From Escherichia coli (GTDB lineage Bacteria; Pseudomonadota; Gammaproteobacteria; Enterobacterales; Enterobacteriaceae), in the NCBI RefSeq assembly GCF_001677475.2, contig NZ_CP015229.1: a stretch of 64,000 nucleotides of DNA. One strand, 5' to 3'. This document shows, one piece after another, positions 3,900 to 64,000 of the stretch (positions are counted from its first letter, which is position 1; every line of letters begins with the position of its first letter). The notes below the pieces were generated by a model. It was not told the origin of the DNA. It did no database searches and saw nothing but the letters and a program-made list of their open reading frames with translations. The position numbers were made by a program, and so were the translations under genes.

Positions 3900-4793
3900 A
3901 TGGAACAGCTGCGTGCCGAATTAAGCCATTTACTGGGCGAAAAACTCAGTCGTATTGAGTGCGTCAATGAAAAAGCGGATACGGCGTTGTGGGCTTTGTA
4001 TGACAGCCAGGGAAACCCAATGCCGTTAATGGCAAGAAGCTTTAGTACGCCCGGAAAAGCCCGACAACTGGCATGGAAAACCACCATGCTGGCAAGAAGT
4101 GGGACTGTCCGTATGCCGACTATTTATGGTGTGATGACGCATGAAGAACACCCCGGCCCCGATGTCCTGCTACTGGAGCGGATGCGTGGTGTTTCGGTGG
4201 AGGCACCAGCCCGAACACCAGAACGCTGGGAACAACTCAAAGATCAAATCGTTGAAGCCTTACTGGCCTGGCACCGTCAGGACAGTCGCGGTTGCGTCGG
4301 CGCGGTCGACAATACTCAGGAAAATTTCTGGCCCTCATGGTACCGGCAACATGTTGAAGTGCTATGGACCACGCTCAATCAGTTCAATAACACCGGTCTA
4401 ACGATGCAGGATAAGCGGATCCTGTTTCGTACTCGCGAATGTCTCCCGGCATTATTTGAAGGCTTTAACGACAATTGTGTGCTGATTCACGGTAACTTCT
4501 GTTTACGCAGCATGCTGAAAGATTCGCGCAGCGATCAGTTACTGGCGATGGTCGGGCCGGGACTAATGCTTTGGGCACCGCGAGAATACGAACTGTTCCG
4601 ACTAATGGATAATTCTCTGGCGGAAGATTTGCTCTGGAGTTACCTGCAACGCGCGCCAGTGGCGGAGTCATTCATCTGGCGGCGTTGGTTGTATGTGTTA
4701 TGGGATGAAGTTGCGCAACTGGTTAATACCGGACGATTTAGTCGGCGCAACTTCGATCTGGCATCAAAATCACTCTTGCCGTGGCTCGCCTGA
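3900..4793 (+). CDS. ycbJ: Putative phosphotransferase/kinase-like protein YcbJ
   Basis: 297 aa ORF, conserved position; 3' end overlaps convergent elyC by 24 bp. Confidence 0.7.
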   Translation: MEQLRAELSHLLGEKLSRIECVNEKADTALWALYDSQGNPMPLMARSFSTPGKARQLAWKTTMLARSGTVRMPTIYGVMTHEEHPGPDVLLLERMRGVSVEAPARTPERWEQLKDQIVEALLAWHRQDSRGCVGAVDNTQENFWPSWYRQHVEVLWTTLNQFNNTGLTMQDKRILFRTRECLPALFEGFNDNCVLIHGNFCLRSMLKDSRSDQLLAMVGPGLMLWAPREYELFRLMDNSLAEDLLWSYLQRAPVAESFIWRRWLYVLWDEVAQLVNTGRFSRRNFDLASKSLLPWLA

Positions 4794-5549
4794 CGAACCT
4801 TTTAGCCACTGCCAGATGCGGCCAAGCGTTTCATAGCCAACACGATCGCTATGCATCAACCAAACCGGAGAAGGGATTGCCCGTTCCCACGGATTAAGCG
4901 GCGAGTTGATGGCCAACTGATTCGCCGGGGCTGGCAGCGGATTTAGCCCTTCCTGCTGAAAAAAGATCATCGCCCGCGGCAGATGTGATGCGGAGGTCAC
5001 CAGCAGGAAAGGGGCGTCACCAATTGCCTGTTTCACTGCCGCAGCTTCTTCTTCGGTATCTTTTGGCAAATCCAGAGTGATAATTTGCTCGCGCGGCACG
5101 CCCAGCGATTGCGCAACTCGGGCACCTACTTCGGCTGTACTCACCGTATTGGTTTTTGCTACGCCTCCCGTGAAGATCAGTTTTGATCCCGGATTTTCGC
5201 GCCATAAGCGAATACCTTCATTCAGGCGGGGCAGACTGTTATTGATTAAATTCGAGCTTGGTGCCCACTGCGGGTTCCAGGTATAACCACCTCCGAGCAC
5301 CACGATATAGTCCACTTTTTGCGAATTATTCCATGTCGGATAGGTGCTTTCGATGGGACGCAGCAGGCGGTCGGCTACCGGTTGCAAACTCAATAACAAG
5401 AGTGCCAGCCACCCAATGCTAATAAAAATCTTCCCGGTTTTTTGAAAACGGCTAAACCACAGCAGCGCCAGGCCAGCGCCAATAATCAACAACATCAGCG
5501 GAAGTGGCAGCAACATATTGCCAATCACTTTTTTCAGTGTAAAAAGCAT
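4770..5549 (-). CDS. elyC: Envelope biogenesis factor ElyC (DUF218), N-terminal membrane anchor
   Basis: 259 aa; hydrophobic N-terminus; recalled YcbC/ElyC sequence. Confidence 0.7.
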   Translation of the reverse strand: MLFTLKKVIGNMLLPLPLMLLIIGAGLALLWFSRFQKTGKIFISIGWLALLLLSLQPVADRLLRPIESTYPTWNNSQKVDYIVVLGGGYTWNPQWAPSSNLINNSLPRLNEGIRLWRENPGSKLIFTGGVAKTNTVSTAEVGARVAQSLGVPREQIITLDLPKDTEEEAAAVKQAIGDAPFLLVTSASHLPRAMIFFQQEGLNPLPAPANQLAINSPLNPWERAIPSPVWLMHSDRVGYETLGRIWQWLKGSSGEPRQE

Positions 5550-5684
5550 CCTTTCTGGTTCCTTTTTTAACCATATAGCAAGGGATCGCCAGCGATATTA
5601 CACCAGACGGGTTCATTCTCGCCGTGGCTGTGACAAAATAGCGTCTTTATCAGAAAACGTCTTAGCCAACCGGTGGAGAAAGCA

Positions 5685-6470
5685 ATGCAGGATCGCAATT
5701 TTGATGATATTGCGGAAAAGTTTTCCCGTAACATTTACGGCACCACCAAAGGGCAGCTTCGACAGGCTATTCTGTGGCAGGATCTCGATCGCGTGCTGGC
5801 GGAAATGGGCCCGCAAAAACTGCGTGTGCTGGATGCTGGCGGTGGAGAAGGGCAGACCGCAATCAAAATGGCTGAGCGCGGGCATCAGGTCATTTTATGC
5901 GATCTTTCTGCGCAGATGATCGACCGCGCAAAACAGGCGGCAGAAGCAAAAGGTGTGAGCGACAACATGCAATTTATACATTGCGCCGCTCAGGATGTTG
6001 CTTCGCATTTGGAAACGCCCGTTGATCTGATATTGTTCCATGCGGTGCTCGAGTGGGTGGCCGATCCCCGCAGCGTATTACAGACCCTGTGGTCAGTGTT
6101 GCGTCCAGGCGGTGTGTTGTCGTTAATGTTCTACAATGCGCACGGCTTGCTGATGCATAACATGGTCGCCGGGAATTTTGATTACGTGCAGGCGGGAATG
6201 CCGAAAAAGAAAAAACGGACGCTTTCGCCAGATTATCCACGCGACCCGGCGCAGGTTTATCTGTGGCTGGAAGAAGCTGGTTGGCAAATTATGGGTAAGA
6301 CAGGCGTTCGCGTGTTTCATGATTATCTGCGCGAGAAGCACCAGCAGCGCGACTGCTATGAAGCATTACTTGAATTAGAAACGCGTTATTGCCGTCAGGA
6401 ACCGTATATTACCCTGGGGCGTTATATTCATGTCACCGCGCGCAAACCGCAGAGCAAGGATAAAGTATGA
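5685..6470 (+). CDS. cmoM: SAM-dependent methyltransferase (tRNA cmo5U methyltransferase CmoM/SmtA)
   Basis: ATG at 5685 (track ORF starts at upstream GTG 5673); SAM motif VLDAGGGEG; stop overlaps mukF start. Confidence 0.8.
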
Positions 6471-56792: not shown

Positions 56793-57812
56793 CTACTTAC
56801 TGACCACAAGCGGCAAATCCAGTGTTGGCGTGATTTTGGTTTTACGATCGTAAATCAACACCTGATTTTCTGTTTTGTGTCCACTGAAAATTTGTTTGTC
56901 GCGACTGCTGCCTTCGTAATCTGAAATCCCTTTGGCTTTTATGTCATGGAAGTTGCACCCAAACGGAACGCCGGCTTTTTGCTCGGCTGCACGTTTAGCC
57001 TGATTCCACCAGTTGTTCAGCGTCTTGGCTATTACCTTCCCGCCTTTGGTTGTGTTGATCACATACTCGCATGTGCCGGAAGATACATTTCGGGCTAACT
57101 GGATCGCCGTACGTAATCGCGGAGACCATTCCTTGATTTGTTTAGTGCCAGTCTTGTTTTGCTCAATGTAAATCCCTTTATCCATAATATCCTGCCATTT
57201 CAGCTCGAGTACATCACCGAGCCTTGCCGCACAAAGATAGGATATCTCCATTGCAATACGTAACTGTGGAATTGCTTCCGCATATATTGCTGCATACTGT
57301 TCATCGGTGATGTAAACAGTACGGGCTTTAAGTGTGAATTTTCTGACACCTTTGCATGGATTATTTTTCACATACCCACGCTCATATCCCCATCCGTATA
57401 CACGGCTCAGACTTGCCAGTTCATGGTTTGCCTGGGTCTTGCTCTCAAGTCCTCGCTTATCCATGAAAATTCTTACCTGTTCAATTTTTACATTATCAGC
57501 AAGCACTTTTCCGAATACTGCCAACAATGCCCTTTGATGTTGCCGATAATCTTTTTGGGTTCGGGGGGCCAGTTCTGTAAATGCAGGGGAGTCCATAAAC
57601 ATGTGCCATAATTTAGCTACTGTCATTATGTTGTGGAGTTTTGCTTTTTCCAGCTCATAATTTTGCCAGACTTTAGCTACGCTGGTTTCCCGCACTCTTC
57701 CGAGCCCTATAGTTCTTGTGCTTCCTTCGGGTTTCCATACGTAACTGTAACCGTTCGATCTAACACGCGGTGGTAGTGCATTATCTTTTTTGTTTTTTCT
57801 TGGTCTTCCCAT
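56793..57812 (-). CDS. int: Tyrosine-type site-specific integrase (lambda Int family)
   Basis: 339 aa; C-terminal catalytic region GHKTENQVLIYDRK resembles lambda Int LLGHKSDTMASQY; 3' end faces the att site. Confidence 0.9.
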   Translation of the reverse strand: MGRPRKNKKDNALPPRVRSNGYSYVWKPEGSTRTIGLGRVRETSVAKVWQNYELEKAKLHNIMTVAKLWHMFMDSPAFTELAPRTQKDYRQHQRALLAVFGKVLADNVKIEQVRIFMDKRGLESKTQANHELASLSRVYGWGYERGYVKNNPCKGVRKFTLKARTVYITDEQYAAIYAEAIPQLRIAMEISYLCAARLGDVLELKWQDIMDKGIYIEQNKTGTKQIKEWSPRLRTAIQLARNVSSGTCEYVINTTKGGKVIAKTLNNWWNQAKRAAEQKAGVPFGCNFHDIKAKGISDYEGSSRDKQIFSGHKTENQVLIYDRKTKITPTLDLPLVVSK

Positions 57813-58032
57813 TGTTCAGCGCCTCAAAATCGGGTTCAGCGGAAACCAGCTCAGGTGCTTTTGGCATCGTTGTCAGTCCGTGTGGAATATCCCTGCGAAG
57901 AACTATTGGTTCGTTTTTAGGACCGATTACAAATGGGATGCCGTGCAGCCTTAACTGGTGTTGCTGTTTTGTGTATCGCTCGTATTTCGTGATCTCTTGA
58001 ATCTCTGCTGGCGATAGAGTTAATTCGTACAT
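57781..58032 (-). CDS. xis: Excisionase-like protein (lambda Xis-like)
   Basis: 83 aa, N-terminus MYELTL and basic C-terminal tail KTKKKQKR resemble lambda Xis; overlaps int start by 32 nt. Confidence 0.6.
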   Translation of the reverse strand: MYELTLSPAEIQEITKYERYTKQQHQLRLHGIPFVIGPKNEPIVLRRDIPHGLTTMPKAPELVSAEPDFEALNNGKTKKKQKR

Positions 58033-58098: not shown

Positions 58099-60549
58099 TT
58101 AAAAATCAACCGGATTCGGGATCAGTTTTTGCCAGATTGCTGAAACGTATTTTGCCTGGTAACGAGCGTCATCAAGTGCATTATGGCGCTCACCTTCGAA
58201 TGGGATAGCTGTTCTGGCATCGAAGTCTATGGCTTTCCCCAGCTCAACGATTGTGCGTACATCGCGATCGTTGCAGTAGCGCCAAGGGCAGGGGATACCC
58301 TGTCGTTCGTATGAACGGCGTAAAATCACGTTGTCGAAGTTGGCCCCATTACCCCAGACCTGAACAAAAAATTCACCGGAGTTTTCGTCGATAAATTCCC
58401 GCAATTGCAGCAGTGCATCATCTAACGGGATTTCATCGGTCAGAATGGCAGATTGCGCCTCGCGTGATTGCTTAAGCCACCATTTTATGGTGTCACGATT
58501 AATGACTCCGCCAGCAGTTTCCAGATCGATGGTCTTACTAAATTCCGGCCCCATATCTCCGGTTTGCGGATCGAAAAATATTGCACCTATTGAGATAATC
58601 GGGGCATCGGGATTTTTTCCCATGGTTTCAAGGTCGATCATAAGATGGTCACATGACCTGCTTGTGGATGTGATATTGTGATAACCGTTCACCTTAATTA
58701 AGGGATCTGTTGCTTCGCCAGTTTCATTATCGCTGGCGTGATGCTGATTGCCTCCAGTGTTCTCCTTGTGTGGATGTTCAGCGCCTTCCATTTCCTCCGG
58801 ATCATTCTCCTGAGCTTCAACCTGATTCTCTTCATCGAATGTTTCCTGGTATGTTGCGTTTCCCATGACCGCGCCACAGTCAGGACAGTTGCCGCCGCTG
58901 CTCTGACCGCAGACGGTGCAGACTTTTTCCGGTTCCTGTTGCACTACTGGTTCGGATTGTTTCGTTTCTGGTTCGTTTTGTTGCGCATTTGGGCTGTTTT
59001 GTTCCGCTTTCTGGTCGTTCTGTGCCGTTTCTTGCTGGTTCTGGTTCACAGAATCGCGGGTTTCAATCCCCTTCACCCATTTCGGATCATTCGGGTCGCT
59101 AATCCCTGCAACAAATTCACCACGTGATGCAGCGAGCAACTGACTGGCGTCAGGCAGGCTGATATTGGCTGCCTGCATAATTTTGTTTACTTCGTCAGCG
59201 GTAACTTTTACCTGATTAACCGGATCTATCTGTGCCTGAGTATCCAGCGATTGCGTGTCCTGGCGAAGTTCAGTTGTATCCGGCTCCATTGCTTCAGTCG
59301 TTGCCTGTTCATCTGCCATTGCGTCAGACGGTTGTGATTTTTCATCATTATTTTTTTCTTCTTCTGTTTCGCGTTTAGCAGCCAGTTCGCGGTTAACTTC
59401 TTCCTGGATATCTTTTTCCGGTGTATGTCGTGCAGCAGCGAGAGTTTCTTCGGTAGGGTTCTCGTGATCAGTCTCCGTTAAGTGGGCGTTGATATACTCC
59501 TGAAGGCGTCCCGGGTAGAGATAAAGTTCAGGGTGAGCACTTCGGATAAGTGCAAAAATAGCGGCACGGGAATAATCCAGAATACCAGGGGTTGCGCGAA
59601 GTGCTGCGGACCATTCTTTGAACGGACTTTCTTTCTTCCGGACGACTTCTTTTGCGCGACGATAAACGCTGCCCGGAATTTCATAAATATTAAAATCCAT
59701 CGGAAGTGTGGCCGCTGCAATCTCCACATCCAGCGTATCGAAGGTGTGTACTAAATTCGGATTGCGATCGGTTTTGTTCCCGCCGCCAGCATTAGCACCG
59801 GAAGCCGTGCGGATGATGCGTGAAACACGATTCCCCTTCATCCACTCTTTTGTAAGCAGACCGCGATCGGTGTAGTCAGCGCCCAGGTATGCTTCGAAAA
59901 AAGCAGTCATCAGTCCCAGGTCTGAATTGCCAGGATTAGGGAAAACTTTGTCAGTGTCACGAACCAGTTTGTGGAGATCGCGAATTTCCAGCGGTTCGAG
60001 TTGCGCTGCTTTATTTGAGATGGCCAGCGCGGTAACGGCGGGAAGTTTTTCATCCTGTGCGTTATGTAATGCGCGCAGTTCGCCCCGCGAAACGTGAGTG
60101 ATCGGTTTTTCGCTGCCGTGCTGAGCAAGCCAGCGAATGGGAAGTATCTGGCCAGAAACCGGGAGTAGCATATTCTCCTCAATATCAGTCATGTCTTCGC
60201 CGTTGACGTTGGTATTGTCAGTGCTGGCTGGTTTATCCTGAACAGAGGGCGCGATAAATACCATTGTGATACCATCTTCCCCGCCTTTTTCGTATCGGTT
60301 GCAGAATTCGGTATCAAACACACCTTCCGGAGGCAGGTCATTCACAACGGGTAAATGGACGCGGACGGGTTTTTTAAAGTCGTCTTCATCATAATCGTTG
60401 TCATCCATTGCGGTAATACAACGGGAGATGGCAACAGATAATTTTTTTGCTGTGGTCCAGTAAAAACCACCTTTAATTCCCAGGCGTTTTCTGACTTTGT
60501 CATTTTTTGCTTCGCAATATAGCGCAAATTCTTCTTTTTCAGTGCTCAT
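58099..60549 (-). CDS. Large prophage protein: unknown N-terminal domain, acidic/Gln-rich low-complexity linker, CxxC-x9-CxxC zinc ribbon, C-terminal DnaQ-like (DEDDh) 3'-5' exonuclease domain
   Basis: 816 aa; exonuclease motifs IDLETMG (Exo I), WGNGANFDNVIL (Exo II), HNALDDARY (Exo III) in last ~185 aa (about 58102-58656); SD GAGG 7 nt upstream of ATG. Confidence 0.75.
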   Translation of the reverse strand: MSTEKEEFALYCEAKNDKVRKRLGIKGGFYWTTAKKLSVAISRCITAMDDNDYDEDDFKKPVRVHLPVVNDLPPEGVFDTEFCNRYEKGGEDGITMVFIAPSVQDKPASTDNTNVNGEDMTDIEENMLLPVSGQILPIRWLAQHGSEKPITHVSRGELRALHNAQDEKLPAVTALAISNKAAQLEPLEIRDLHKLVRDTDKVFPNPGNSDLGLMTAFFEAYLGADYTDRGLLTKEWMKGNRVSRIIRTASGANAGGGNKTDRNPNLVHTFDTLDVEIAAATLPMDFNIYEIPGSVYRRAKEVVRKKESPFKEWSAALRATPGILDYSRAAIFALIRSAHPELYLYPGRLQEYINAHLTETDHENPTEETLAAARHTPEKDIQEEVNRELAAKRETEEEKNNDEKSQPSDAMADEQATTEAMEPDTTELRQDTQSLDTQAQIDPVNQVKVTADEVNKIMQAANISLPDASQLLAASRGEFVAGISDPNDPKWVKGIETRDSVNQNQQETAQNDQKAEQNSPNAQQNEPETKQSEPVVQQEPEKVCTVCGQSSGGNCPDCGAVMGNATYQETFDEENQVEAQENDPEEMEGAEHPHKENTGGNQHHASDNETGEATDPLIKVNGYHNITSTSRSCDHLMIDLETMGKNPDAPIISIGAIFFDPQTGDMGPEFSKTIDLETAGGVINRDTIKWWLKQSREAQSAILTDEIPLDDALLQLREFIDENSGEFFVQVWGNGANFDNVILRRSYERQGIPCPWRYCNDRDVRTIVELGKAIDFDARTAIPFEGERHNALDDARYQAKYVSAIWQKLIPNPVDF

Positions 60550-60639
60550 TGATAAACCTCATTACAGATTTAAGGGTGAACAAATCCCTGCCATTGCTGG
60601 CATATAAAAATGAAACCGGATATTTATTACTGTGCTGTT

Positions 60640-60831
60640 TTAAAGTCCTGCCGGGACTTCGTTATTATCCATGCGAATAACTTTATCGACCGGATAACAG
60701 TTACCGGGAATTTTTTGTTCTGCTGCGGCAGCCATGCATTCTTTCATTGAACCGTATAAGCCAGTCACCAGCTCAAGAGATTCGCCGGAAACAAGATAAA
60801 CTGTCAGAACGAGTGCAAATGTTGTATTCAT
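60640..60831 (-). CDS. Hypothetical small protein (63 aa) with hydrophobic N-terminal segment
   Basis: ATG preceded by AAGGA SD; start overlaps upstream stop (ATGA); sequence MNTTFALVLTVYLVSG suggests signal/TM segment. Confidence 0.55.
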   Translation of the reverse strand: MNTTFALVLTVYLVSGESLELVTGLYGSMKECMAAAAEQKIPGNCYPVDKVIRMDNNEVPAGL

Positions 60832-61016
60832 TGTTTATATCCTTTTTGCCGCAGGTCCAGACGAGCCAGCATTGAAGGAATGCATACTTCATTTAACAGG
60901 TCCTGCTCGAGTGTTCTCTGCTTAATGGCGTCTTCAATAAATGTTTTGTCTCCGGTGATAACGCCAATTTCGAAACGAAGTTCAGACGTACTGGCATTGC
61001 ATGATAACTTTTCCAT
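60828..61016 (-). CDS. Hypothetical small protein (62 aa)
   Basis: ATG preceded by GAGGA SD at 7-nt spacing; translationally coupled to downstream 63-aa gene. Confidence 0.55.
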   Translation of the reverse strand: MEKLSCNASTSELRFEIGVITGDKTFIEDAIKQRTLEQDLLNEVCIPSMLARLDLRQKGYKQ

Positions 61017-61033
61017 TATCGCGTCCTCAACAA

Positions 61034-61186
61034 TGAATTTTGTGATGCGGTGCCTGGTGCCTCCAGGTGACGTTAACCAGTTAACAATTAACGCCGGAGT
61101 ATTTCACGTTACGCCAGTAAAGGACCGCTTTACTGTTTTAACTGTTCCGCGTGCGCTTAGCCGCATTCACCGCATCACAAAATTCA
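61034..61186. repeat. 19-bp perfect inverted repeat (TGAATTTTGTGATGCGGTG / CACCGCATCACAAAATTCA) flanking a 115-bp hairpin-rich spacer
   Basis: Arms at 61034-61052 and 61168-61186; spacer holds nested hairpins cctgg-tgcct-ccagg, cgttaa...ttaacg and cagtaaag-gaccg-ctttactg; no ORF over 26 aa on the minus strand across 61017-61573. Confidence 0.7.
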
Positions 61187-61573
61187 CTTTAAAAAGGGCG
61201 GACATCAGCCAGCAATGAAAACTGATGCCGCCAAAGGTACCAATCAACATGGAGTGTTGCGGCGGGGTTGTCACTCAGGCGTATGGTCAACCTGACAACC
61301 CGGTGTCACCAGTGGGGGTAAGGAAAACCCCGCCATACTTACCGCCGCGCCATTTCGCGGAGTGCCACAACCGGAAGCGCACGGTCGACGAAAATTTAAC
61401 GACAGGCTATCTATGAACCATAAACCTCGCCGTGCGCTTTCGCGTTATGCCCTGACTTTTCAGGGAAATATCCTTTCAGTAAACTGTCAGTGCCGGATGT
61501 TCACCCGTGTCCGGCGCACGCACTCCACCTCACCCGTGGAGAACCCCTTAATTACCAACCCTCAGGAGAGTGA

Positions 61574-61807
61574 ATGTTAAAATCAACTCTTATTGCTAAA
61601 TGCCTTTATCAAAATCGCATGGTAAGCAGCATTTCAATAGGCGAGTCTGCAGTTAAAAGTATTTTCGAAGAGTTCTTTCCCGGGCATGATTTTAATAAAT
61701 GGAATACCAAATTACCGCCAGCAGTTTCAACGCGTATTCTGAAAGCAACTGAAAGAGCAAGTACAATTCGCGTTAACTATTTCATTAAAGATTTGTGGGA
61801 TCTTTGA
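61574..61807 (+). CDS. Hypothetical AT-rich small protein (77 aa), opposite orientation to neighbours
   Basis: ATG preceded by AGGAGA SD; low GC relative to surroundings; 3' end overlaps convergent 135-aa gene by 23 bp. Confidence 0.45.
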   Translation: MLKSTLIAKCLYQNRMVSSISIGESAVKSIFEEFFPGHDFNKWNTKLPPAVSTRILKATERASTIRVNYFIKDLWDL

Positions 61808-62192
61808 TATCCACAGAGCCTAAAGTATGTGCATATGGATGTGCTATTGTGCGCCCTCGCAGATTTGCATCATTTTCTAAATTCACTGAACGAAACAGGG
61901 CATCAACAAGGCTCTGTACAATGCAAAGGCAATCGAAGACTGTCGCTGTTTCTGTTTTGATTGATGAAAGAACATGGCCATTCACGCAAACAGAAATTAC
62001 CCGTTCATTAACATCGCTTTCCTGCTTTTGATTATCAGAACTATATAGCCCAGAAAAAGCATTGCGCACATTATGAACCATATTATCGATGGTTTCTTTT
62101 TCTACGGTACTCAGGTCAAGAGTCGCCAGTTGAGAACGAACTATATTCGCTGCCATTTCCTGGAATGGTACTGGTAAATCTTTAAATTCCAT
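61785..62192 (-). CDS. Hypothetical protein (135 aa; alternative start at 62204 gives 139 aa)
   Basis: ATG at 62192 with GAGG 6 nt upstream; upstream gene stop TGA lies within the ribosome-binding region, implying coupling; no recognisable motif. Confidence 0.6.
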   Translation of the reverse strand: MEFKDLPVPFQEMAANIVRSQLATLDLSTVEKETIDNMVHNVRNAFSGLYSSDNQKQESDVNERVISVCVNGHVLSSIKTETATVFDCLCIVQSLVDALFRSVNLENDANLRGRTIAHPYAHTLGSVDIKDPTNL

Positions 62193-62207
62193 CGTCAACC
62201 TCATCAG

Positions 62208-62423
62208 TCAGTGGTTTTCAATCTCTCGTGAAACGTTTAATGCCGCGCTTTTTGCCAGAGTGGTAATATCCAGCTCCGCTGACGCCAGTTCTTTAGAGAG
62301 GTGCTCTTTGTTGTTAGCAGCCTGTTTCAGGTCATTAATGGCGCGTATCTTCCCGAACATCCATTCGTAAATTTCATCATCGGTATAGCCTGGTGCGATG
62401 ATGGTGGGTTCTGGTTTCTGCAT
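62208..62423 (-). CDS. Hypothetical protein (71 aa)
   Basis: ATG at 62423 preceded by AAGGAG at 5-nt spacing (track ORF starts at an upstream GTG, 62462); first gene of a two-gene coupled unit. Confidence 0.6.
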   Translation of the reverse strand: MQKPEPTIIAPGYTDDEIYEWMFGKIRAINDLKQAANNKEHLSKELASAELDITTLAKSAALNVSREIENH

Positions 62424-62515
62424 GTCAGCTCCTTGTGGTTCGCATTGCCTGCTTTTAACCACGTCAGGCGAGGTGGTATCCTCTGAGGGGTCTGTTACTC
62501 GAGAGGAAATTGGTT

Positions 62516-62716
62516 ATGAATACAATCAAGTTTTCTTGCCCAGAATGTGGTGGCGAAGTCTTTGACACATCCTTTAAGCCGCAGGGCTCTGACAGTTTCG
62601 CGGGAGCCATCTGCAAAAATTGTGGTCACCTTGTAACTGAAGATGAGTCCTCGCAGTTCGATGACGAAATCGTTGATAATATCTTCGGCGCACTCACCAG
62701 AGATTTCCTGAAGTAA
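62516..62716 (+). CDS. Small zinc-ribbon protein (66 aa)
   Basis: CPEC-x19-CKNC motif; GAGAGGA SD 8 nt upstream of ATG; divergent from the 71-aa gene with 92-bp shared upstream region; fewer rare codons than the overlapping antisense ORF. Confidence 0.5.
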   Translation: MNTIKFSCPECGGEVFDTSFKPQGSDSFAGAICKNCGHLVTEDESSQFDDEIVDNIFGALTRDFLK

Positions 62717-63030
62717 AAGCGCATGCCGTTTAGTTACCGCTCTGATCATTCTTACTTGTCCGGTAATGGCGCTGACATCAGTATAAAGCGCCATTGCTGC
62801 TTCTTTGCCGATCCCAGGATGCCTTCCATTCTGATGTTTGACTTCGCCCACTGAGAAATCCTCTGTTTCCCCTTAACGCCGGGGTAGCGGAACAAAAACC
62901 TGCTGCATAGTTAAAGTTGAACCCTGCCGTCATGTTCTTACGCCTCGGGCTGGCTACTTAACCCCTGACCACTGCCTGGTAACTCGAAGTATTGCCCTGC
63001 GTTTTGTGGGGCGGGGTGGGTTAGTAAAAA

Positions 63031-63052
63031 TAGTTTATACAAAAATAAACTA
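63031..63052. repeat. 22-bp palindrome TAGTTTATACAAAAATAAACTA (candidate operator or structural site)
   Basis: Perfect 8-bp arms around a 6-bp AT core, in the 400-bp non-coding gap between the zinc-ribbon gene and the ParE-like gene. Confidence 0.5.
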
Positions 63053-63116
63053 AACAGTCAATATGCAACTTAACTCTTTGGCGAGGATAACCCCTGTTGA
63101 GAGGGGCTTCGGGGGA

Positions 63117-63404
63117 TTAAGGTGTTACAGGGAACTGTCGGCGGGCGTGAACTACGCTAACAATTTCAATGCCTGAAATTGTCACGCGGTATAGAATTAT
63201 GTAATTGGGGTGAGCAACAATTTCACGCAAACCCGGAACTCTGTCGCTTGGCGGGTATAAATACGGATGCTCAGATAATGGCAGGACGCAAGTCCTTAAG
63301 CGTTTCCACAAACGTTCTGCCGCATCTATATCAAAACGAGCAATATAGCTAGTTATATCATCCAAGTCGGCATCTGCGCTTTCGAGCCATAAAACCGGTA
63401 ACAT
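63117..63404 (-). CDS. parE: ParE/RelE-family toxin
   Basis: 95 aa; family pattern (LPVLWLESADADLDDITSYIA ... PGLREIVAHPNYIILYRVTISGIEIVSVVHARR); start abuts antitoxin stop (TAAATG). Confidence 0.8.
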   Translation of the reverse strand: MLPVLWLESADADLDDITSYIARFDIDAAERLWKRLRTCVLPLSEHPYLYPPSDRVPGLREIVAHPNYIILYRVTISGIEIVSVVHARRQFPVTP

Positions 63405-63596
63405 TTACTGCTTGCTCCGTTCCTTGCGCATGTTAGCAAAGCGTTCAGCCATTCTGCGTTCAACTTCGTCATGTGGGATGGCTGGACGTGGATCAGCAAG
63501 GCTTGCGGCCACTTTTGCACGCAGCCATTCGTTATAACTATTTTCTTGCTCGATGGTTTCAAATTCAGAAACCATTGGTGAAAGGGCTGTGTTCAT
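63405..63596 (-). CDS. Small antitoxin (63 aa), PaaA-like partner of the ParE-like toxin
   Basis: ATG at 63596 with GAGG SD; immediately upstream of toxin; size and position as in recalled three-component paaR-paaA-parE modules. Confidence 0.7.
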   Translation of the reverse strand: MNTALSPMVSEFETIEQENSYNEWLRAKVAASLADPRPAIPHDEVERRMAERFANMRKERSKQ

Positions 63597-63631
63597 GGCG
63601 AACCTCGTTTTGTAAGTGCTGGTAATTCTGC

Positions 63632-64000
63632 CTAGGTAACTTTTTGTTGTGCTGCTAGCCACCTTGCAACTATACGATCCATTGTCTCTTTTTTTTCCTT
63701 CATATCTTTAAGTATTTGCTGTTGATCTTCCTCTGGAAATGCCTCAAATGTTTGAAGTAGCTCCTTTTGCTTAGGAGATATTTTTAATATATCCTGTGTT
63801 TTGTCTTCTTTTTCTTCATTTAATGGTAAGAAAAACCAATGTTGGGGAAAACCCGTTACTTCAGATAGTTTATCTAGATTAGCTGCTGTAGGGCTTGATA
63901 TACCACAAACCCACCTTTGGACGGATTGTTGAGCAATACCAATTCTGCGCGCAAGCTCTGCTTGACTCCAGCCTTTTTCTAATAGAAGCATCTTAATTCT
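63632..64000 (-). CDS. HTH XRE-family transcriptional regulator (PaaR-like), 5' end beyond window
   Basis: Helix-turn-helix signature GWSQAELARRIGIAQQSVQRW; frame open to window edge; 35 bp upstream of the antitoxin gene. Confidence 0.75.
   Translation of the reverse strand, partial: RIKMLLLEKGWSQAELARRIGIAQQSVQRWVCGISSPTAANLDKLSEVTGFPQHWFFLPLNEEKEDKTQDILKISPKQKELLQTFEAFPEEDQQQILKDMKEKKETMDRIVARWLAAQQKVT

Follow-up and report, generated by a model that had tools for sequence, protein, structure and literature searches.

A probable antisense-nested pair of coding genes at the entry to a dicBF-type early operon of an Escherichia coli lambdoid prophage

Three small genes lie at 61785-62716 of the stretch of Escherichia coli DNA analysed here, a 64,000-nucleotide (nt) piece of contig NZ_CP015229.1 that we call the window: a 71-amino-acid (aa) and a 135-aa gene on the minus strand and, divergently, a gene for a 66-aa protein with two pairs of cysteines. 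Do these three genes belong together? A first-pass annotation took them for a candidate module, with the cysteine-rich protein as a regulator of its target operon or as part of an antidote-effector set. Comparison with related loci gives a different answer. The three genes are interchangeable accessory early prophage genes and form no obligate module, and the locus makes up the opening kilobase of a dicBF-type operon, the leftward early operon of a lambdoid prophage of the Qin/Rac type. A second question arises from the opposite strand of the 66-aa gene (Zn66), which is enclosed in antisense by a 99-aa open reading frame (ORF), orf99. Here we find a conserved antisense-nested pair of genes that are probably both protein-coding, of which the examined annotation systems each retain one strand.

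The trio itself is ordinary: these are accessory genes of a known prophage operon, and existing catalogues list them under YdfC, the ECs_2282 family and PHROGs. In bacteria, however, long antisense overlaps between coding genes remain a matter of dispute, and such overlaps are routinely dropped by annotation pipelines. At this locus two annotation traditions keep opposite strands of the same DNA, since RefSeq annotates the zinc ribbon only, and RAST-type annotation and PHROGs the minus-strand ORF only; a comparison across four genera suggests that both are right. If this is true, the locus would offer comparative work an unusually clean example of a functional pair of genes overlapping in antisense, would flag a systematic blind spot in prophage annotation and, with its strands read in alternative states, would be a simple system for convergent transcription and overprinting in lysis-lysogeny regions. 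We found no description of the nested pair or of this locus in the searchable literature, and nothing there on ECs_2282. The features that carry the argument are the following.

62516-62716, plus strand: Zn66, 66 aa, CxxC-x21-CxxC; matches NF047912 (ECs_2282 family) over residues 4-59 with 57.3 bits against a cutoff of 37
62495-62794, minus strand: orf99, 99 aa, first operon gene, ATG at 62794; matches phrog_21318 over its full length with 203.6 bits
62446-62482: conserved element of 35-37 nt in the spacer between orf99 and ydfC, candidate Zn66 promoter

Zn66 is wholly nested in orf99 with an overlap of 201 nt and, codon for codon, each frame is the reverse complement of the other. The nested pair is intact in at least ten lineages of Escherichia, Citrobacter, Klebsiella and Enterobacter: both ORFs are retained in the window lineage, L156, L160, L164-166, L167, L168/169, L170, L171 with L250-256, and L173/174, and paired protein calls on the same contigs place both also in Citrobacter amalonaticus and Klebsiella michiganensis. 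The block formed by the two genes (hereafter the Zn block) is found in 936 of 5426 complete E. coli genomes, O157:H7 prophages among them. By chance, each frame would stay open in seven lineages with a probability of at most about 3-8e-4.

The evidence for the embedded gene is the stronger. As first described, the 66-aa ORF has a strong Shine-Dalgarno (SD) sequence of its own, GAGAGGAA, 8 nt upstream of its ATG; the cysteines, which had been given a CxxC-x19-CxxC spacing, are in fact at positions 8, 11, 33 and 36. All four are invariant in 10 aligned lineages, and Zn66 is constantly 66 aa long with identical start and stop in the eight DNA lineages compared (the window, L156, L160, L164 from Citrobacter, L167 from Klebsiella, L168, L170 and L171). 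In seven lineages, the orf99 codon opposite each of the four cysteines is without exception ACA or GCA; of the Thr and Ala codons here these account for 13% and 22%, both amino acids being four-fold degenerate. Outside the overlap, third positions of orf99 vary in 25 of 26 codons, so that the invariant A opposite the cysteines cannot come from selection on orf99 alone. The dN/dS value (nonsynonymous over synonymous substitution rate) is 0.20-0.33 in nine of ten pairs for the Zn66 frame (0.58 in the remaining one) and 0.45-0.69 for the antisense frame (1.35 in one close pair); in every pair the Zn66 frame has the higher protein identity and the lower dN/dS. A full HMMER scan returned 99 family representatives, mostly of 60-75 aa and with the motif CPxC...GAxCxxCGHxxTED, some of which lie in co-directional operons far from the present context. 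The fixed length, the invariant cysteines with their rare partner codons, the low dN/dS and the wide family thus argue strongly for the zinc ribbon as a real gene that is kept by purifying selection and is the older partner of the pair. We hold with high confidence that Zn66 is coding, as a putative zinc-binding protein of the ECs_2282 family.

The same features bear on the view that follows from RAST-type and PHROG annotation, namely that only orf99 is real and the zinc-ribbon ORF is its chance shadow. Phage annotators do call the minus-strand ORF alone, and the nonsense alleles of Zn66 described below, in which orf99 stays intact, point the same way. Yet a chance shadow would hardly keep its start, stop and length fixed, preserve four cysteines through an invariant rare third-position A in four-fold degenerate partner codons, be the better conserved frame in every pair, or have so many of its 99 family representatives outside the prophage-block context. 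We therefore regard this view as very improbable.

The enclosing gene shows a different profile. orf99 comprises 36 protein clusters from four genera, and its identity drops to 39% among the eight DNA lineages. Its ATG and SD are conserved at one position in most lineages; the frame is open further, up to a GTG at 62851, and this extension is not conserved. In the 26 codons outside the overlap, the variation at third positions exceeds that at first and second positions (35 of 52; Fisher p=0.004), the non-overlapped part has a dN/dS of 0.32-0.46, and the N-terminal motif TLxVDxSAxxGQ is recognisable even in L173, whose DNA has diverged. An AlphaFold2 model built from 21 sequences gives an alpha/beta fold with a predicted local distance difference test score (pLDDT) of 77.9; Foldseek searches against PDB and BFVD for fold neighbours returned nothing better than E=0.08. 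Of 99 E. coli-type loci, 95 have an intact orf99; the other four carry indels that disrupt both ORFs, and in none is orf99 alone broken. Six further Enterobacter-type loci retain both ORFs. A supposed frameshift of orf99 in O157 prophages was rejected, as the indel lies upstream of the ATG at 62794 and the 99-aa ORF is intact. Selection on orf99 is thus supported by the codons outside the overlap, and only there, and we consider the gene likely to be coding.

Several observations weigh against two coding genes and against the wider interpretation built on them. Either frame would be open by chance at 0.2-0.47 per lineage, and open antisense frames are likewise seen opposite remote zinc-ribbon homologs that lie in co-directional operons, so that openness alone is weak evidence. 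Inside the overlap, an OLGenie-style ratio is 0.58 for orf99, and shadow frames of ordinary single genes at the same loci give 0.50-1.15; with such controls the ratio is no evidence of selection on orf99 (both ratios <1). Zn66 is nonsense-mutated in 27 of the 99 E. coli-type loci and hence dispensable there. The candidate Zn66 promoter agrees with the consensus at 8 of 12 positions (plus TGn) and was not called by the promoter scan. Finally, no fold or family match assigns a function to YdfC, orf135, orf99 or Zn66.

The nonsense loci (L143, L147, L153, L154 and relatives) share a GAA-to-TAA change at codon 14 (E14*), which in orf99 is a conservative Phe-to-Leu exchange. The E14* allele is therefore a natural single-partner knockout, and would be useful as such should the pair prove functional.

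How far do these observations favour the RefSeq view, in which only the zinc ribbon is real? orf99 would then be a shadow ORF, kept open because Zn66 avoids TTA, CTA and TCA, and the operon would begin with an untranslated antisense leader of ~600 nt. The sole annotation of the zinc ribbon in RefSeq, the chance openness of the antisense frame, its openness in the remote co-directional homologs and the null-range selection ratio all agree with this, and the core similarity of orf99 across lineages partly mirrors zinc-ribbon conservation. However, a shadow ORF does not account for the third-position excess and low dN/dS in the non-overlapped codons, for an ATG and SD kept in place in most lineages, for an N-terminus still recognisable as protein in L173, for the model confidence, or for the fact that Zn66 is broken in 27 of the loci in which orf99 is never broken alone. 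We consider this view unlikely, and favour the interpretation that Zn66 and orf99 are probably both coding.

The N-terminus of orf99 varies between lineages, as seen in the Enterobacter-type loci L171 and L250-L256, where the minus-strand partner has a 33-residue N-terminal extension with one CxxC and no Met at the usual start. In Citrobacter L164 (4995-5519, minus strand), a homolog of the orf135 C-domain (phrog_23433, 5.2e-18) is fused in frame before orf99 to give a 174-aa ORF, within which an SD and an ATG are retained where orf99 normally starts.

Antisense overlapping genes have been described in E. coli O157:H7, namely ano, pop, asa, laoB and oloz (PMC5960689, PMC7103648, PMC6294744, PMC5810103, PMC9927249). 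They resemble the present pair in that an ORF is embedded antisense to an annotated gene, with codons that are reverse complementary, as reported for oloz0137 (frame -1). The embedded genes described there are young and do not extend beyond Escherichia/Shigella, and the 'mother' gene is widespread without them. At our locus, in contrast, the embedded Zn66 belongs to a wider and apparently older family, the enclosing orf99 is the restricted partner, and in the enterobacterial prophages examined neither is seen to travel without the other.

Which operon does the pair belong to? The window chromosome is E. coli-like and carries the pyrD leader, rlmI and yccA, and a lambdoid (Qin/Rac-like) prophage is integrated beside yccA. 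From the immunity region to the integrase, its further features are as follows.

63632-63991, minus strand: helix-turn-helix (HTH) repressor ORF, interrupted by the window end; 131 aa in contig L099
63032-63061, minus strand: pL-like early-left promoter candidate, TTGACT-18-TAAACT, from a promoter scan
62208-62423, minus strand: ydfC homolog, 71 aa; phrog_1744, 83.6 bits; the O157 counterpart is 'protein YdfC' in RefSeq
61785-62192, minus strand: orf135; phrog_1363, 156.6 bits, plus PHROG hits to the N-terminal part only and the C-terminal part only
61574-61807, plus strand: orf77, 77 aa, putative coding, SD AGGAG; phrog_10348, 158 bits; annotated in RefSeq O157
61196-61245, minus strand: DicF-like small RNA (sRNA); Rfam RF00039, 44.1 bits, E=1.3e-7, gathering score of 48 not reached
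60828-61016, minus strand: dicB, cell-division inhibitor; NF049927, 117.4 bits against a cutoff of 100
60640-60831, minus strand: ydfD-like / DUF1482 small protein; phrog_1092, 120 bits; the O157 counterpart is annotated DUF1482
58099-60549, minus strand: RecE-like exonuclease, operon-distal gene; NF007259, E=6.6e-263, under its cutoff; the O157 counterpart is annotated exonuclease
57781-58032: xis of the prophage beside yccA
56793-57812: int of the prophage beside yccA

Starting at the repressor, the order is thus a ParE/RelB pair, the pL-like promoter, orf99, ydfC, orf135, the DicF-like sRNA, dicB, the ydfD-like gene, the exonuclease, xis and int. RefSeq annotation of O157 has, read from the other end, exonuclease, DUF1482, DicB, a hypothetical protein (plus strand), a 135-aa hypothetical protein, YdfC, an ECs_2282-family protein (plus strand), HTH repressor and Cro. 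The region matches prophages over part of its length in 4097 of the 5426 complete E. coli genomes, and over at least 80% of it in 540; the best full-length matches (91%) are O157-type 'PPompW' prophages. In K-12 the counterpart is ydfA-ydfB-ydfC-dicF-dicB-ydfD, from which the 135-aa gene and the zinc ribbon are both absent. The 71-aa protein is 54% identical to K-12 YdfC over 68 aa (E=3e-24), and in tblastn comparisons the ydfD-like gene is 65-69% identical to K-12 YdfD and the HTH repressor, which has the same orientation upstream of the operon, 31% identical to K-12 DicA. The DicF-like match spans the full RF00039 model, is followed by a T run and sits in a long untranslated stretch downstream of orf135. 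ydfABC-dicF-dicB-ydfD has been published as a single DicA-repressed operon (PMC5069750), and this description, together with the O157 and K-12 annotation, the YdfC homology, dicB above its cutoff and the DicF-like RNA, identifies the operon as dicBF-type.

The likeness to the dicBF operon of K-12 Qin (PMC5069750) extends to the HTH repressor, ydfC, the long leader with a putative DicF-type sRNA, dicB, the ydfD-like gene and the exonuclease in the same order; ydfA, ydfB and ydfC are likewise without an assigned function there (PMC5069750). Unlike Qin, the window has the orf99/Zn66 nested block in place of ydfA and ydfB, neither of which was found by tblastn in the window's prophage (L004/L099), the block filling their slot. 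It also carries orf135 and orf77 inserted between ydfC and the DicF region, a YdfC that is just 54% identical, a DicF match under the Rfam gathering score, intact exonuclease, xis and int genes, and the ParE/RelB pair between repressor and early promoter. The Zn block hence stands at the start of an operon whose products include two potent inhibitors of cell division, DicF and DicB.

Where would transcription of this operon begin? The first-pass annotation had read the gap between the divergent genes as a 92-bp shared control region. The gap, 62424-62515, does measure 92 bp, but the conserved minus-strand ORF ends inside it, and a pattern scan found no minus-strand promoter match there, the only minus-strand candidates being 63061-63032 and 61030-61001. 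The former, ~600 bp upstream, is the pL-like candidate, which overlaps a palindrome, AGTTTAT-N6-ATAAACT. The sequence past the window end is given by the IMG/VR contig L099, which shares 5485 nt with the window without a difference: there, two tandem HTH repressor genes are followed by a divergent cro/YdaS-like gene behind TTGACTGGTTTATTTAGTTGCGTATAAACT, a pR-side promoter candidate of nearly identical design across the immunity genes. Twin promoters on both sides of the immunity genes are the classical lambdoid layout (lambda, P22). From the pL-like candidate and its pR-side twin, the start for ydfC and orf135 is placed ~600 bp upstream, and the two genes are most likely transcribed from there and not from the 92-bp gap. 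In L099, the tandem repressor-like genes (131 and 123 aa) lie within 5117-6304, with cro/YdaS-like, YdaT-like and O-like genes next.

The gap itself contains the conserved spacer element, which is present in seven of the eight lineages, is more conserved than the flanking coding DNA and occurs once in the window against 0 expected. It reads as a -35 TTAACC (62455-62460), a 16-nt spacer and an extended -10 TGgTATCCT (62474-62482), and carries two interleaved inverted repeats, GCCTG/CAGGC (62447-51, 62465-69) and ACCAC/GTGGT (62458-62, 62473-77), the first of which is changed on both arms in L173 (GCCGGG/CCCGGC). We take the element for a putative Zn66 promoter and operator; an equally good reading would be an RNA element in the transcript of the minus strand. 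A search of 60500-64000 against Rfam (E<=1) gave no match for the element and returned solely DicF and STnc100. Closer to the gene, a 5' hairpin beside the Zn66 SD folds in every lineage, with two alternative stem sequences; as an SD-sequestering hairpin in the 5' untranslated region it was rejected, given z-scores of -0.3 to -1.6 and almost no RNAalifold covariation.

The element also occurs elsewhere. It is found alone, at 100% identity, in more than 1000 complete E. coli genomes without the zinc-ribbon gene (also in L172, 1501-1537), and in L156, at about 1058, it forms the joint of a 986-bp deletion/insertion that removes ydfC, orf135 and orf77; it may thus be a recombination joint between mosaic segments. 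In L164, a Citrobacter freundii prophage, a second copy precedes another counter-oriented 66-aa ORF on the plus strand (3992-4262). This ORF is unrelated to the zinc ribbon and without a PHROG match, and it runs into the end of a YdfC-like gene of 142 aa. From this second copy, the element resembles a portable cassette that serves genes running counter to the early operon.

How could two such genes share one piece of DNA? In every prophage lineage with flanking sequence, which excludes L160, the Zn block is the first unit beside the immunity genes, mostly on the pL side; in Klebsiella L167 it is on the pR side, and in L170 an endonuclease gene lies upstream of it. We infer promoter use, expression timing and mutual interference as follows. 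A repressor-controlled pL-like promoter near 63030-63060 would start the leftward transcript, which would run through orf99 to the exonuclease. Zn66 would form a separate transcription unit against the operon, probably from the promoter-like spacer element. In the lysogen, with pL repressed, only the zinc-ribbon strand would be readable. Upon induction, transcription from pL would cross Zn66, express orf99, YdfC, orf135, DicF and DicB, and oppose the Zn66 transcript by collision and pairing. The four proteins may act in exclusion, in host modulation or in control of the operon. As the best explanation of the whole locus, a dicBF early operon with a counter-read nested pair acting as a strand switch has our fair confidence. 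Its most specific form, in which a mobile, fully nested sense/antisense coding pair gives one protein in the lysogen and the other strand's protein on induction, with orf99, a gene confined to enterobacterial prophages, overprinted on a zinc-ribbon gene of an older, widespread family, we put forward tentatively, at slightly less than an even chance.

The closest functional precedent comes from Pseudomonas phage Fc02, where a gene expressed in the lysogen and one of early lytic growth are antisense to each other in their overlap beside the repressor, and both exclude superinfecting phages (PMC9936078). As proposed for the window, the pair there, olg1 and gene 10, consists of two coding ORFs on opposite strands next to a repressor, one strand belonging to the lysogen and one to early lytic growth (PMC9936078). 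Unlike the prophage in the window, Fc02 is Mu-like and thus of an unrelated phage type, and its exclusion was shown by experiment, whereas our pair is a prediction from sequence. In the window, moreover, the small gene lies wholly inside its partner, and conservation of the pair extends over four genera. By analogy, Fc02 may serve as a parallel for the use of the two strands in lysogeny and induction.

Lambda OOP against cII and P22 sar against ant are non-coding antisense RNAs inside lambdoid early operons. The locus would share with them a short counter-transcript in an early operon near the immunity region, convergent transcription and RNA pairing; unlike OOP and sar, the counter-transcript in the window would encode a conserved 66-aa protein.

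We return to the question whether the three genes form a module. Every gene was scored by tblastn at 160 related loci from viral contigs. Among 58 evaluable loci with full-length orf135, the zinc ribbon is present in 20, ydfA and ydfB occupy the same slot in 37 and one locus has neither, with ydfC in all 58. Conversely, ydfC accompanies the zinc ribbon in 62 of 63 evaluable loci, of which 20 have the full orf135, three an N-domain-only variant and 39 no orf135. K-12 carries ydfC but neither partner; once it is counted, every one of the four combinations (Zn block or ydfA/B, each with or without orf135) exists. In L156 the Zn block is joined straight to the DicF leader, ydfC, orf135 and orf77 being absent, and in other genera (L167-L171) it occurs without ydfC or orf135. 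The trio is thus not inherited as a unit, and a module is not supported: the parts assort independently.

Nor do the proteins match suitable families. For none of the three did PADLOC, NCBIfam or Pfam give a match to a toxin-antitoxin (TA), defence or DNA-binding family, and no relatives of solved structure were found by sequence search. The best PADLOC hit for Zn66 (E=0.0019) is not significant, and its Pfam similarities, such as that to DUF5795 (7.5e-5), are generic zinc-ribbon ones. A TA or defence system was rejected, given these nulls for YdfC and orf135 and the generic hits for Zn66. Two classes of regulator were also rejected: the 25 Pfam matches listed for Zn66 include no Ogr/Delta or HTH hit, and a Lar-type zinc-finger regulator is represented by a Lar-like PHROG hit that reaches E=0.0098 only. 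By our own count Zn66 is acidic, with about 12 D/E against 5 K/R, which does not suggest DNA binding. Independent assortment, the L156 and L167-L171 arrangements and the absence of TA, defence and regulator families are what lead us to interchangeable accessory genes, and the trio turns out to consist of ordinary early-region prophage genes of the dicBF operon.

Some of the evidence does fit a zinc-ribbon protein that regulates or neutralises the divergent ydfC-orf135 through the spacer. The Zn66-ydfC adjacency is seen repeatedly in E. coli and Citrobacter, the spacer holds a strongly conserved, dyad-bearing element, and the orf135 C-domain family (phrog_23433) adjoins the Zn block in three more lineages, each time arranged differently: in Citrobacter (L164-166) it is fused to orf99 on the upstream side, in L160 it lies upstream and in L174 downstream. 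This recurrence is a residual hint of linkage; the domain is missing from four other lineages. Against such a model stand the independent assortment within E. coli, the Zn blocks without ydfC or orf135 in L156, L167, L168, L170 and L171, the solitary K-12 ydfC, the lack of any TA, defence or DNA-binding family hit, the acidity of Zn66, and the position of ydfC and orf135 inside a longer operon with its own upstream promoter candidate. We judge the model improbable and keep to accessory genes without an obligate partner.

The details described for the minus-strand genes hold in part. The near-consensus SD of the 71-aa gene is confirmed, AAGGAG lying 6 nt before the ATG. Its stop had been placed inside the ribosome-binding region of the 135-aa gene; the TGA is just upstream of the SD, which appears as GAGG in the 15-nt gap to the ATG. 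Tight coupling of the two is plausible in so far as they are adjacent, co-directional and near enough for co-translation. The statement that none of the proteins has a recognisable motif was incomplete, as the 71-aa protein is a YdfC homolog and the zinc ribbon matches NF047912. Like type II TA pairs, for instance ParE/RelB 400 bp away, ydfC and orf135 are small, adjacent, tightly spaced and co-directional; unlike these, they have no family match, no strict co-occurrence and no evident promoter of their own. Both are most likely co-transcribed, closely spaced and dispensable accessory early genes, their dispensability following from presence and absence among relatives.

YdfC and the two parts of orf135 differ in their constraint. 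ydfC has a dN/dS of ~0.8 against the K-12 allele and of 1.3 in one close pair, with residues 1-22 conserved between alleles, which suggests that constraint is very weak or, alternatively, that the C-terminal helix is under diversifying selection. We found no literature on the native function of YdfC, the sole substantial mention being an artificial evolution experiment in yeast. orf135 consists of an N-domain (aa 1-52, MEFKDLP...), joined elsewhere to at least four unrelated C-termini, and the C-domain of family phrog_23433; it forms 228 protein clusters, nearly all from Escherichia and every one named 'hypothetical', and its AlphaFold2 model from 23 sequences (pLDDT 44) is unusable. With dN/dS values of 0.56-1.14 for the N-domain and 0.27-0.29 for the C-domain, YdfC and the orf135 N-domain appear as fast-evolving and the C-domain as constrained. 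orf77 runs in the direction opposite to the operon, and its overlap with the 3' end of orf135 measures 23 nt; neither orf77 nor orf99 figured in the first-pass annotation. It is found at 77 of 84 loci having the orf135 C-domain, with indels in diverged alleles, and loci without it have a 201-aa form of orf135, so that the orf77-bearing segment seems to have replaced the tail of that form.

Several neighbours deserve brief mention. Between the prophage repressor and the early-left promoter, in the slot of rexAB in lambda, lie a ParE toxin (95 aa, PF05016, 1.4e-16) and a RelB-family antitoxin (85 aa, NF050103, 84.6 bits), within 63117-63662 on the minus strand; the O157 counterpart prophage is without this pair, and phage Evi has a 90%-identical one. 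The DicF-like sRNA departs from the Rfam consensus in the loop and the 5' part, and just upstream of dicB, at 61039-61184 on the minus strand, is an STnc100-family match (38 bits, gathering score 47). For the exonuclease, of 816 aa, the match to the RecE (exodeoxyribonuclease VIII) model is confined to profile positions 1-603 of 877, and the C-terminal region of the protein, judged by eye, resembles a DnaQ-type 3'-5' exonuclease.

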